The notes below the pieces were generated by a model, which saw nothing but the letters and a program-made list of their open reading frames with translations, was not told the origin of the DNA and ran no database searches. DNA of 50,432 bases from a virus: the IMG/VR virus record IMGVR_UViG_3300029258_003011, one strand, 5' to 3'. The position numbers were made by a program, and so were the translations under genes. Below, in pieces: positions 9,828-12,354 of this stretch. The first letter of the stretch is position 1. Each line of letters starts with the position of its first letter.

Positions 9828-11141
9828 TTATATCCTTACAATATAACCAGTTCTATTTACATGCTGCGCAGTGCCATTTTTCCCTTCAATCACCCAAATT
9901 ATTTTCTTTGGGAGTTTTGCTCTTGAATGGGAATTGATATCGTCACAATGACCATCCGTAAACACTAATGCAACATCAACGTTTAACTCTTTACATCTTT
10001 CAAGACCTGGAGCTAATACGGTTCCTCCTCTTCCTTTTACCTCCATTTGAATATCACTTATTCTTTTAATCTCATACTCTTTATGAATCTTTGTATCAAT
10101 TTCGAGTACGGTCACTTTGCAATGACGATCGTTTTCTATAATGTTCTTACAACCAGAAAGACCTTCCTGAATATCTTCCTTGCTTTGACTACCAGATGTG
10201 TCAAGAACAATTCCAATATTAAATGTAAAGTCTCTTGTTCTTCCTGGAAATGGTGAGATTTGAGGAACATTCTTTTCATCACCAATTGAAAAAACATATG
10301 TTCTCTTACGATTGATTTTAGAATAATGACGTTTGAATTTGCTCAATCGTGTTCCAACGACCAAGTTTCTTATGATTTGAAAATAAGGTGCTTTTGGTGG
10401 ACGAAGCGCTTCTTCTATCAAGTCCCTCATATAAGATGGAAGATTTCCTCTGCTTTTACTAAACATCTTCAAAGAAGAACTTATCATCTTTTTAGAGTAA
10501 TTTTCAACTTTCCTTGATAGAGAACTGACATCCGCAACTTCTTTCGCTACTTTAGTCCATCCGCTATGGTCGTCCATTTCGTCATATACTTCACCAGCAC
10601 CTTCAAACGGTAATGACGAATTTCCAGATTCCTGTTTCTTCTTTTCATGGTCTTGATACAAACTATTGAAATAAAATTCAGTTGCTTGTTTGTCAGGCAA
10701 ATCATATAGTTCTGGTTTACATAATTGCCATGGAGAACCATTTATCATTAACTCATCTGGAATTTTCATTAAAGTATTAACTGCACAGTCGGAAGCAGTC
10801 CTCCATACATCTGCTTTTTGATTTAAAACCGACTCACTAATCTCATTTGAAATCATCCGAAGGCATCTCGGAACATGCTTATTTAATACATGCAATCCCT
10901 CATGTTCTAATATGAGCTTGAGAGTATCATCATCTGTGCCTTTCATCAAAGCAGGACTATATAATAATGATAGAGTCCCATCTGGTTCTGGCGATACTCC
11001 CATAATTGATGGAATGTTATCCGAGGCAACCCTTCTGATTCTTCCAAATAGGTATCCCCAATAACTCTGCTTGAGAATCATATGGGATACCAATTCTTTT
11101 AATCGTTCGGATTGGTCCATATTATTGTTTCCCCTTCCCAC
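9828..11141 (-). CDS. VWA-domain protein with N-terminal putative HExxH metallopeptidase domain (DUF2201-like)
   Basis: 'ILEHEGLHV' HExxH motif in the N-terminal half. MIDAS motif 'VLDTSGSQS' in the C-terminal VWA fold. Typical partner of MoxR ATPases. Confidence 0.6.
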   Translation of the reverse strand: MGRGNNNMDQSERLKELVSHMILKQSYWGYLFGRIRRVASDNIPSIMGVSPEPDGTLSLLYSPALMKGTDDDTLKLILEHEGLHVLNKHVPRCLRMISNEISESVLNQKADVWRTASDCAVNTLMKIPDELMINGSPWQLCKPELYDLPDKQATEFYFNSLYQDHEKKKQESGNSSLPFEGAGEVYDEMDDHSGWTKVAKEVADVSSLSRKVENYSKKMISSSLKMFSKSRGNLPSYMRDLIEEALRPPKAPYFQIIRNLVVGTRLSKFKRHYSKINRKRTYVFSIGDEKNVPQISPFPGRTRDFTFNIGIVLDTSGSQSKEDIQEGLSGCKNIIENDRHCKVTVLEIDTKIHKEYEIKRISDIQMEVKGRGGTVLAPGLERCKELNVDVALVFTDGHCDDINSHSRAKLPKKIIWVIEGKNGTAQHVNRTGYIVRI

Positions 11142-12354
11142 ATTCTACAACTGCTTCATAGAATTTAGATTTGTAATCAGGATTGCTCATGAGTTTAACA
11201 TGCAATTCCGTAAAATACAAGAATTCCTTGCTATCCTTATCCTGCTGATCTACGAGCATGATGAATGTTGCTGCCGTATCTAATGGGAGATCAGAAAGAA
11301 ATGTTGCAATATTAACTCTCTGAGGATCCGAAAGAACAGGCATATCAGCAATCATGTAAGTAGTAAATGCATCCATAAGAGCAGTAAGTGTGGCATTATC
11401 AGATGACATTTTAAATGCCTCAATTTTTGCTCGTACTTTTGCATAATCATCCAAGATATCTTGAGGACTGATATCTTTATTTTCAACTACAAATTCTACA
11501 AACATTCTTGCCATATTTACATTCAGCAATCCTGCTGCCAATGTTTCAATATCCTCAACTTTTCCGTCAAGACCACCACCATTAACATTTTCCATCTTTA
11601 TTAATAGTGTTGACAGTTTTTCATAGCTGGCAGGATTTGCAAAAACCTGACCGGTCTTCTGAGCATCAAAATCATATAACCTGTCAGGGTGGGATTGGAT
11701 ATATTCAATAACATGCTTATGGAATTTAGCTTTCCGAGCATAAGTAAGAAAATCAACTGCATTAACTTCAGTATATACATGCAATTGTCTTCTCAAACCT
11801 GCAGCGTCTTCAAGAATATCCATTGAATACTCTTGGTCATCAGGGTTATCTACACTTATTACAAACCAACCTTTCGGGAAATCATATCTGTGAACAGAAT
11901 ATTCATTTTGAACCTGCCATAGTAACTGCTGTAAAGAATGATCCCCTCTTGAGAATTCATCAATTACAAACAATCCATATGTGTCATCTCCCTTTGGAAC
12001 GAAATCTGAATACAACATTTTGAATGAAGTATTCCCATTATCAATCACCGGAAATGGAATAATGAAATCATCTCTGCTTAATACAGGAGCTTTCACCATA
12101 ATCATATCGAATGGTTTTCCCAGTTCTTTTGATAATTCCTGAGCGATTTGCCCACATATCTCAGTCTTGCCAACTCCAGCAGGACCAATAATATGAAAGC
12201 ATTGCTTTTTTACGTCGTCTCCCTTTTCCCACGAACGAACTGTTCCTACAATATCATTTTTGATAAGTTTCTTCACTCCGTTTATTGATAGGCACGGAAT
12301 GTTTATTCTCTCGTAGTATTTCAATACATCCTGTTGTTCCGTAGTTTCCGTCAT
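11122..12354 (-). CDS. MoxR-like AAA+ ATPase
   Basis: Walker A 'GPAGVGKTE', Walker B 'LFVIDEFSRGD', and 'WFVISVDNPDDQEYSMDILEDAAGLRRQL' matching the MoxR 'ATQNP...LpeAqlDRF' region. Overlaps the downstream VWA gene by 20 nt. Confidence 0.7.
   Translation of the reverse strand: MTETTEQQDVLKYYERINIPCLSINGVKKLIKNDIVGTVRSWEKGDDVKKQCFHIIGPAGVGKTEICGQIAQELSKELGKPFDMIMVKAPVLSRDDFIIPFPVIDNGNTSFKMLYSDFVPKGDDTYGLFVIDEFSRGDHSLQQLLWQVQNEYSVHRYDFPKGWFVISVDNPDDQEYSMDILEDAAGLRRQLHVYTEVNAVDFLTYARKAKFHKHVIEYIQSHPDRLYDFDAQKTGQVFANPASYEKLSTLLIKMENVNGGGLDGKVEDIETLAAGLLNVNMARMFVEFVVENKDISPQDILDDYAKVRAKIEAFKMSSDNATLTALMDAFTTYMIADMPVLSDPQRVNIATFLSDLPLDTAATFIMLVDQQDKDSKEFLYFTELHVKLMSNPDYKSKFYEAVVECGKGKQ

Follow-up and report, generated by a model that had tools for sequence, protein, structure and literature searches.

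A predicted MoxR-class ATPase and its zincin-VWA partner, of the N4 gp24/gp25 class, form a core gene pair in an uncultured lineage of large phages

The N4 gp24/gp25-type gene pair is among the most widely shared phage gene pairs without an assigned function. In N4-like phages, the set of 14 core genes includes gp24 and gp25, whose function is listed as unknown (PMC4193335; PMC2784036) and which are both middle transcripts (PMC4193335). A pair composed of a MoxR ATPase and a vWA protein with an N-terminal metallopeptidase domain was described in the "group 2.2" jumbo phages by Iyer et al. in 2021 (PMC7824862). In Bacillus phage 0305phi8-36, a viable deletion that causes a growth defect removed a region including MoxR-like and vWA-like genes (PMC3357382). 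Among cellular systems, NorQ-NorD associates one partner molecule with each NorQ hexamer. A finger beside the VWA domain of NorD plugs the central pore of NorQ and contacts its helix-2 insert, the MIDAS, an adhesion site dependent on a metal ion, binds acidic residues of the client, and ATP hydrolysis pulls or twists the linker to the N-terminal domain (PMC9976466, PMC13036017). Here we analyzed a viral DNA stretch of 50,432 nucleotides (IMG/VR record IMGVR_UViG_3300029258_003011, hereafter the window), whose minus strand carries an ATPase gene at 11122..12354 and the gene for a predicted zincin-VWA partner at 9828..11120. The pair is real and tightly linked, and it belongs to the previously described N4 gp24/gp25 class. 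An earlier interpretation made from the letters alone, here called the sequence-only reading, missed this class, a known MoxR and peptidase-vWA pair (PMC7824862). It was right about the domain identities and in describing a conserved chaperone-like pair.

The window pair shares with N4 gp24/gp25 (Schitoviridae) the same two protein families, the gene order, the invariant HExxH and MIDAS motifs, the core status and a location among middle or replication genes. It differs from them in that identity is only 21-23%, that the N4-like proteins are shorter (about 340-400 residues), and that the window belongs to large phages of an unrelated lineage, which have a multisubunit RNA polymerase (RNAP) and topoisomerase II (topo II). 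The architecture is identical to that of the "group 2.2" pair, which was also read as a chaperone and cochaperone. However, that survey, which did not include the uncultured lineage of the window, favors virion assembly or processing, whereas the context in the window points to a replication and transcription module (PMC7824862). By its sequence, the window pair can be classified as a divergent member of a pair that had already been described; its identity to every cultured phage is below 30%. What is new here is the quantitative case for a core module, the conservation of residues across very distant lineages, a docking hypothesis, and the recognition of a misannotation of the partner as an HNH endonuclease.

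Coordinates refer to the whole window, and residue numbers of the partner refer to a 437-residue frame. The DNA around the pair is AT-rich (approximately 33-36% G+C), and nearly all long open reading frames (ORFs) are on the minus strand. The ATPase gene encodes an AAA_5/MoxR-class AAA+ protein of 410 residues and starts at ATG 12354, with a Shine-Dalgarno sequence, AAGGAG, at 12368-12363. Its TAA stop codon (11124-11122) is followed, 1 nt beyond, by ATG 11120 of the partner gene, which from there encodes 430 residues of the N4 gp25/COG3864 class. An alternative start, GTG 11141, would yield an ORF of 437 residues (9828..11141). ATG 11120 is better supported because the Shine-Dalgarno-like sequence GGAAGGGG lies ahead of it at 11138-11131, because the database entry P0001 (430 residues, identical to the partner) uses it, and because homologs of the partner begin at the position aligned with it. 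The two genes had been described as overlapping. Both ORFs are indeed present at those positions on the minus strand, but the 20-nt overlap depends on GTG 11141, and with ATG 11120 favored it is probably a 1-nt spacer. Whichever start is used, the arrangement makes the two genes look tightly, and translationally, coupled. No terminator-like hairpin was found between the upstream Cys-rich ORF, the ATPase gene, the partner gene and the gene for topo II B.

Gene order was compared in 46 related loci, 42 of which were fetched from IMG/VR (43-61% identity; contigs of 38-277 kb), by searching their six-frame ORFs with the window proteins. The ATPase ORF was located directly upstream of the partner in all 44 loci having upstream sequence. 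The 46 loci have a fixed order, RNAP beta ... p213 - p324 - ATPase - partner - topo II B/A, where p213 and p324 are conserved genes considered below. On three long metagenomic contigs (180-271 kb), the order was RNAP beta', RNAP beta, small genes, ATPase, DUF2201 protein, topo II B and topo II A, with a pilin-like gene, PTPS/QueD and a helicase beyond topo II A; the ATPase homolog on these contigs has about 410 residues and no Pfam match. Relative to the window proteins, those of the related loci had a median identity of 56% for the ATPase and 52% for the partner, against RNAP beta at 56%, topo II B at 55%, topo II A at 51% and the helicase at 52%. In its slow evolution the pair behaves like a housekeeping core module and can be separated from the variable genes around it. 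The sequence-only reading had placed it in an accessory or anti-defense islet, which is contradicted by the fixed position in the 46 loci, by the RNAP-like rate and by the PADLOC scan, in which neither protein had a significant match (the sole match was DolB, at 0.005, over the P-loop). Membership in a core replication and transcription module, rather than accessory status, narrows the search for clients and argues for work in N4, where genetics is available.

The window has no nucleotide similarity to known phages. At the protein level, the two have 581 and 625 homologs among database entries, and tblastn with the partner detected matches in 315-317 of 50,697 phage records, every one at less than 30% identity; Rak2-like and Asteriusvirus-type jumbo phages (TH47, Turkey3 and CBB) were among them. 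Carriers of the pair include N4-like, rV5-like, Rak2-like and Asteriusvirus-type phages and phages of Bacillus, Vibrio, Xanthomonas, Pseudomonas and Alteromonas, and the two genes are linked in at least nine unrelated cultured phage lineages. In Escherichia phage Pollock they are annotated as "ATPase, N4 gp24-like" and "metallopeptidase, N4 gp25-like", and the window profiles match these proteins at 8e-7 and 4e-15. The gp24-like ATPase gene of Pollock (4124-5912) appears to be interrupted by an HNH homing endonuclease gene, the order being an 85-residue ORF annotated "ATPase, N4 gp24-like", the endonuclease, and a 227-residue ORF that matches positions 170-292 of the ATPase profile.

Order and spacing vary among these phages. 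The genes are adjacent with the ATPase first in Bacillus phages BpSp and Internexus (Takahashivirus), with a gyrase B-like gene a few kilobases upstream, and in Xanthomonas phage XaC1, with thymidylate synthase and a virion structural protein nearby. A single small gene separates them in the N4-like Acinetobacter phage XC38, directly before a helicase and a DNA polymerase, and two to four genes do so in Salicola phage SCTP-2, which has DNA polymerase I-like and GreA-like genes there, and in Pseudomonas phage Paride. In Alteromonas phage AD45-P1 the order is reversed and the neighbors are uninformative. The two genes are 7 kb apart in the N4-like Vibrio phage pVa5, near genes for DNA polymerase, thymidylate synthase and ribonucleotide reductase, and 4.5 kb apart on opposite strands in the rV5-like Salmonella phage PVP-SE1, near genes for thymidylate kinase and a replication initiation protein. 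The co-occurrence of the pair across such varied orders and spacings is good evidence that the two proteins act together. The contexts of the pair in unrelated phages are mostly DNA replication and nucleotide metabolism.

The partner matched the Pfam families DUF2201_N (PF13203, "putative metallopeptidase domain"; 4e-9, 36.8 bits against a cut-off of 23.2) and DUF2201 (PF09967, "VWA-like domain"; 1e-12, 48.4 bits against 26.4), both above the gathering scores, in agreement with the two domains that the sequence-only reading had proposed. It also matched phrog_1314 (2e-49), and its AD45-P1 ortholog is annotated as COG3864. An AlphaFold2 (AF2) model with a predicted local distance difference test score (pLDDT) of 89.8 comprises an alpha/beta domain at residues 10-266, a poorly modeled segment at 277-298 and a small C-terminal alpha/beta domain at 299-437. 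The former is the predicted zincin-like domain (10344..11114, minus strand; PF13203 match at residues 10-279). It contains the HExxH motif, HEGLH, at residues 80-84 (10890-10904, minus strand), within a modeled helix at 71-86. A conserved basic linker follows (residues 267-305; KFKR...NRKRTYVF...ISPFPGRTRD; 10227..10343, minus strand), which has the lowest pLDDT of the partner (57-68). The C-terminal VWA domain (residues 306-437; 9831..10226, minus strand) has a complete MIDAS, made of D314-x-S316-x-S318 (10188-10202, minus strand; "DTSGSQS" at residues 314-320) plus T374 and D396. The partner's fold-search matches include NorD and the MIDAS domain of midasin, and the VWA fold is thereby supported.

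Conservation was determined in two close-clade alignments of 27 and 119 partner sequences (49-77% identity) and in an alignment of 11 divergent sequences. The latter includes seven cultured-phage homologs at 21-27% identity, from Escherichia phage Pollock, Acinetobacter phage XC38 and Vibrio phage pVa5 (N4-like), Vibrio phage Va1, Bacillus phage BpSp, Salicola phage SCTP-2 and Xanthomonas phage XaC1. Residues H80, E81, H84, H89 and D118 are invariant in all three alignments, as are the MIDAS residues D314, S316, S318, T374 and D396. R92 and N122 are invariant in the 11 homologs (21-55% identity) and in the 27-sequence alignment but not in the 119-sequence one. The HExxH motif, whose conservation the sequence-only reading had singled out as decisive, is thus kept in homologs down to 21% identity. 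From its pattern of conservation it qualifies as a complete zincin signature, for which H89 and D118 are candidate third metal ligands. The linker has the highest share of columns conserved at 90% or more (51-55%, compared with 43% in the catalytic helix region and 41% in the VWA domain), and its "NRR...PG...D" core is kept in divergent homologs. All 11 aligned divergent sequences match both DUF2201 domains; weak secondary matches among them were to M48 (3/11), SprT-like (2/11; 0.0011) and VWA_CoxE (3/11).

Numerous records label the partner as an "HNH endonuclease". This identity was rejected, as Pfam scans matched no HNH family in either the window protein or the 11 homologs, and the label is a widespread misannotation. 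It is found on phrog_1314, in RefSeq records such as NC_049379, NC_021772, NC_027381 and NC_016071, and in Pharokka-style annotations. The partner of phage Paride is labeled "homing endonuclease", and the original GenBank records say metallopeptidase. The wrong label in many RefSeq records conceals the partner family from searches.

The ATPase has all the motifs that had been quoted for it, as the partner has HEGLH and DTSGSQS. Walker A, GPAGVGKT, spans residues 57-64 (12163..12186, minus strand) and is kept in homologs: G57, A59, G60, K63 and T64 are invariant in 120 of them. The same holds for the Walker B residues D132-E133 (11956..11961, minus strand), for N170-P171 and for R188-R189. The segment from sensor 1 (N170) to the arginine-finger motif, DNPDDQEYSMDILEDAAGLRRQ, covers residues 169-190 (11785..11850, minus strand); the quoted "NPDDQE...AGLRRQL" corresponds to residues 170-191 and reads in full DNPDDQEYSMDILEDAAGLRRQL. 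This segment aligns with the NP...A.R.RF motif of the midasin AAA modules. An exhaustive profile search with the ATPase retrieved 4,343 cluster representatives (50% identity) at E<=1e-3. We selected 70 diverse full-length members of the family, 20-48% identical to the window protein, in which G60, G62, K63, N170 and R189 are invariant.

The window protein matched phrog_1297 ("ATPase") at 7e-33 but scored 21.2 bits with Pfam AAA_5, narrowly below the 22-bit cut-off, and its MoxR-type identity was therefore tested separately on the family members. At the same E-value threshold, 62 of the 70 relatives matched AAA_5, 17 matched AAA_3, the family of MoxR proper, and four matched bpMoxR. In the NCBIfam scan no MoxR model was matched and only P-loop noise was obtained. 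Clade profiles retrieved nothing significant from PDB sequences for either the ATPase or the partner. The profile of the 70 relatives gave as its best matches the AAA modules of midasin/Rea1 (1.5e-42 over five modules), followed by Clp/Hsp100 and McrB; the nearest MoxR-type structures are CbbQ and NorQ. We read the ATPase as an AAA_5/MoxR-class protein, outside every curated MoxR subfamily and with a family-specific C-terminal domain. Clustering with CbbQ or NorQ had been thought to speak against the pairing if their partners were unrelated, but both act with VWA partners, CbbO and NorD (PMC9976466).

The AF2 model of the ATPase (pLDDT 85.6) shows an AAA+ core, a beta-hairpin insert after helix 2, a lid and an additional helical C-terminal domain. 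The helix-2 insert (residues 89-120, SRDDFIIPFP...; 11995..12090, minus strand) has two modeled strands, 100-105 and 108-113, which follow helix 2 and precede strand 3. It is the best-conserved region of the protein, with 72% of its columns conserved at 90% or more, and has a pLDDT of 57-69; D96 is conserved at 90% or more in divergent relatives. We infer that it is a pore or partner-contact element. The all-helical C-terminal domain (residues 261-410; 11125..11574, minus strand; modeled helices at 263-407, pLDDT about 90) is left uncovered by the alignments with CbbQ and NorQ, which span 220 residues. It is kept in distant relatives, in which profile matches extend to about position 390.

The explanation that we consider best, with somewhat more confidence than doubt, is that the pair is a split MoxR/VWA-zincin module for ATPase-driven processing of a client. 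The ATPase would assemble as a hexameric ring, on which the partner would dock via its basic linker and VWA domain, touching the acidic, pore-lining helix-2 insert. The MIDAS metal would hold an acidic residue of the client protein, ATP hydrolysis would remodel the client or the linker of the partner, and the zincin would then cleave the client. The net result would be an ATP-dependent protease or processing chaperone that is split in two and coupled by an adaptor. The neighboring genes for replication, transcription and nucleotide metabolism, together with the middle expression of the N4 pair, suggest that its action may be intracellular and may fall before genome replication or while it proceeds.

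The putative docking interface consists of the linker (residues 267-305), which would serve as the "finger", and the helix-2 insert (residues 89-120). It is proposed because both regions are the best conserved of their proteins, are the least confidently modeled, are oppositely charged and resemble those of NorQD. An invariant basic NRKR in the linker faces, in terms of charge, an invariant acidic SRDD in the insert, and "NRR" and "D..G.P" persist in divergent alignments. Like NorQ-NorD and CbbQ-CbbO, the phage pair combines an AAA_5-type, predicted ring ATPase that has a helix-2 insert with a partner in which a flexible linker joins an N-terminal domain to a MIDAS-bearing VWA domain at the C terminus. 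The conserved linker and insert are plausible counterparts of the finger and its pore contact in NorQD. In contrast with those systems, however, there is no detectable shared sequence family, the N-terminal domain is zincin-like and not a passive client-binding domain as in NorD and CbbO, the VWA domain is minimal (about 130 residues), and the ATPase has an extra 150-residue helical C-terminal domain. NorQD and CbbQO also differ in acting on metalloenzymes of the cell.

Other systems offer partial likenesses. Midasin/Rea1 also combines an AAA_5 ring with a MIDAS, and its ring motor pulls through a MIDAS-bound client. Unlike the phage pair, it is one very large eukaryotic polypeptide in which six AAA modules are fused; it has no peptidase and removes ribosome-assembly factors. 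FtsH, and Wss1 or SPRTN with Cdc48/p97, join an AAA+ motor to an HExxH zincin. FtsH, however, is a single membrane-bound chain that has both activities, and its AAA module is of the classical clade; the phage pair has no M41 or WLM matches, and its coupling would run via the VWA domain. A stronger version of the proposal, which we regard as unlikely, is that a MoxR ring uses a VWA "finger" to drive a separate zincin while the MIDAS selects the client. This would be a new kind of ATP-dependent protease, essential in the middle phase across N4-like and many other large phages. It might, for example, process replication or transcription factors, or clear roadblocks from phage DNA in the manner of Wss1/SPRTN-Cdc48. 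The pair lies beside the topo II genes in the lineage of the window, and a gyrase B-like gene is near it in the Bacillus Takahashivirus phages; a link to the repair of DNA-protein crosslinks is speculation.

Several points weigh against a client-processing protease. The neighborhood argument for its timing is guilt by association only. The zincin domain matched no solved peptidase in two fold searches, as VWA hits filled the lists, and because of this the term "peptidase" rests on the DUF2201_N match and the invariant HExxH. NorQD, CbbQO and the chelatases remodel clients or insert metals without proteolysis. In the literature we found no experiment on the function of any member of the pair. 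Nor were data on essentiality or knock-down of N4 gp24/gp25 or their homologs found there, including in the CRISPRi-ART paper and a transposon-mutagenesis preprint, and the paper on the phAPEC6 virion proteome does not mention the pair. Finally, structural genes are occasionally near the pair, namely a virion structural protein gene in XaC1 and a tail completion protein gene in Va1.

These structural genes, within a few kilobases of the pair, would fit a different function, that of a virion-morphogenesis chaperone and processing protease that folds, assembles and trims head or tail proteins. A virion role was proposed by Iyer et al. (2021), with a MoxR-vWA system needed for tail development in the archaeal virus ATV as a precedent (PMC7824862). 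All carriers have large virions (genomes of at least 70 kb), and N4-like roseophages have a second structural module near gp24/gp25 (PMC4193335). The lineage of the window and most of the sampled lineages nevertheless place the pair with RNAP, topoisomerase, helicase, DNA polymerase and nucleotide-metabolism genes, outside the head and tail modules. Moreover, in N4 the orthologs are transcribed in the middle and not the late phase, and the list of N4 virion proteins does not include them (PMC4193335). A chaperone expressed earlier could still serve assembly, and we hold a virion role to be weakened and improbable but worth keeping in view. We think it rather more doubtful that the pair is a host-takeover or anti-defense effector, in which the MIDAS would catch a host protein for inactivation by the ATPase-driven zincin. 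The pair does border a variable islet with a NADAR gene and a weak PDC-M42C match (2.7e-9), expression in N4 is early to middle (PMC4193335), and the viable deletion of 0305phi8-36 with its growth defect fits a conditionally useful function (PMC3357382). Nevertheless, the islet genes are missing from 42-46 of the 46 related loci, whereas the pair has a fixed genomic position and housekeeping-like conservation, and it is core in all N4-like phages regardless of host (PMC4193335). The same residues are invariant in phages of Gram-negative, Gram-positive and unknown hosts, unlike in arms-race genes, and neither protein has a PADLOC match.

That the pair is a nonproteolytic chaperone for metal insertion or remodeling, of the NorQ-NorD, CoxD-CoxE or CobS-CobT type, appears to us very unlikely. 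In that case the HExxH, instead of cleaving peptides, would bind a metal or deliver it to a phage metalloenzyme such as ribonucleotide reductase, which is encoded by the window and by many carriers. Client remodeling or metal insertion is what all characterized MoxR-VWA couples do (PMC9976466, PMC13036017), NorQ, NorD and CbbQ are among the structural matches, and three of the 11 divergent homologs weakly match VWA_CoxE. However, the general base E81 is invariant together with both histidines and with H89 and D118, a full catalytic signature that metal binding alone would not need. No CobS, CobT, NorD or CbbO family model was matched, and the weak secondary matches are to peptidase families (M48, 3/11; SprT-like, 2/11). 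An identity as a CobS/CobT or BchI/BchD chelatase was likewise rejected, as Pfam and NCBIfam scans returned no CobS, CobT or Mg-chelatase family.

Two further genes belong to the conserved surroundings of the pair, p324 (16943-17917, minus strand), which has a weak double-zinc-ribbon match (0.005), and p213 (17962-18603, minus strand). Both are kept in 41-42 related loci, normally directly upstream of the ATPase, and in most of these loci the p324 homolog ends immediately ahead of it. They could be lineage-specific third and fourth components, or clients, of the pair.

In the window, p324 and the ATPase gene are separated by a 4.6-kb insertion (12376-16921) with MVP-like, coiled-coil, NADAR and Cys-rich genes. 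This insertion is almost unique to the window's phage: its genes form a variable islet, and the pair is core. The sequence-only reading had noted the NADAR and Cys-rich genes next to the pair; they do adjoin it in the window but are not conserved neighbors in the related loci. The NADAR gene (12671-13123, minus strand; PF08719 at 1e-28, phrog_1017) has a homolog in one of the 46 loci, where it is downstream of the pair, and its product matches the PADLOC candidate-system component PDC-M42C at 2.7e-9. It overlaps the start of the Cys-rich, tail-anchored ORF by 29 nt. The latter (12376-12699, minus strand) contains PCFECLLDGNCSEICP, with four Cys, and ends in a hydrophobic anchor at its C terminus, and no homolog was found in the libraries scanned or in the related loci. 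The coiled-coil gene (13180-14214) has homologs in two of the 46 loci, both from one contig. Terminator-like hairpins with T-rich tails are located at 16921-16893 and 14278-14256, and a palindrome at 13144-13167. The islet genes look like self-contained "moron" cassettes. Related phages hold other inserts at this site and between the partner gene and topo II B.

The MVP-like gene of the islet (14304-16853, minus strand) encodes a full-length protein of 849 residues that matches MVP_shoulder (5e-20) and Vault_3 (5.5e-7). Bacterial MVP/SPFH proteins (Myxococcales, Bacteroidia and Desulfobacterales) share about 46% identity with it over 97% of its length. Copies on a few contigs of related phages are 59-71% identical to it, and genes of three "huge phages" that are uncultured (LR756500, LR756501 and LR756503; 462-735 kb) are 39-40% identical. 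Such a gene is carried by no cultured phage and no PHROG was matched, and a phage-borne homolog of the vault protein looks more unusual than the ATPase-partner pair itself. Vibrio phage pVa5 has an SPFH-domain gene (3782-4723) between its MoxR-like ATPase and peptidase-VWA genes. We considered whether an SPFH/MVP protein is functionally linked to the pair and rejected this as a general feature, given that the MVP-like gene, like the Cys-rich one, has a homolog in none of the 46 related loci, and the resemblance between the pVa5 gene and the MVP-like gene of the window is probably a coincidence.

A clade-alignment scan of cellular genomes yielded only five contigs, all from metagenome-assembled genomes (Micrarchaeota, Thermoplasmatales, Izimaplasma and Woesearchaeota), one of them of 211 kb. 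These are probably mis-binned low-GC phage DNA, and the host is therefore not inferable from them. A Thorarchaeota name is attached to one ATPase homolog, most likely for the same reason.

No cultured member of the window's lineage was present in the phage collection searched. Its contigs are up to 277 kb long and also encode topo II, ribonucleotide reductase, UvsX, RtcB and SbcCD-like genes. The window has an RNAP beta-like gene at 20438-24529 (minus strand, 1363 residues) and a beta'-like gene at 24548-27553 (minus strand, 1001 residues), both unsplit. Their best matches in cultured phages, YerA41, phiR1-37 and Staphylococcus and Listeria jumbo phages, are 22-28% identical over half the length. 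Between the topoisomerase subunit genes, an ORF of 230 residues with a lipoprotein-like N terminus (…LSLYSC…; 7343-8035, minus strand) has no homolog in the related loci. Beside topo II A, the window carries two conserved genes, which encode a type IV pilin-like protein whose N terminus bears a methylation motif (5697-6008, minus strand; PF07963 at 3e-9) and a PTPS/QueD homolog (5274-5687, minus strand; 1e-30).

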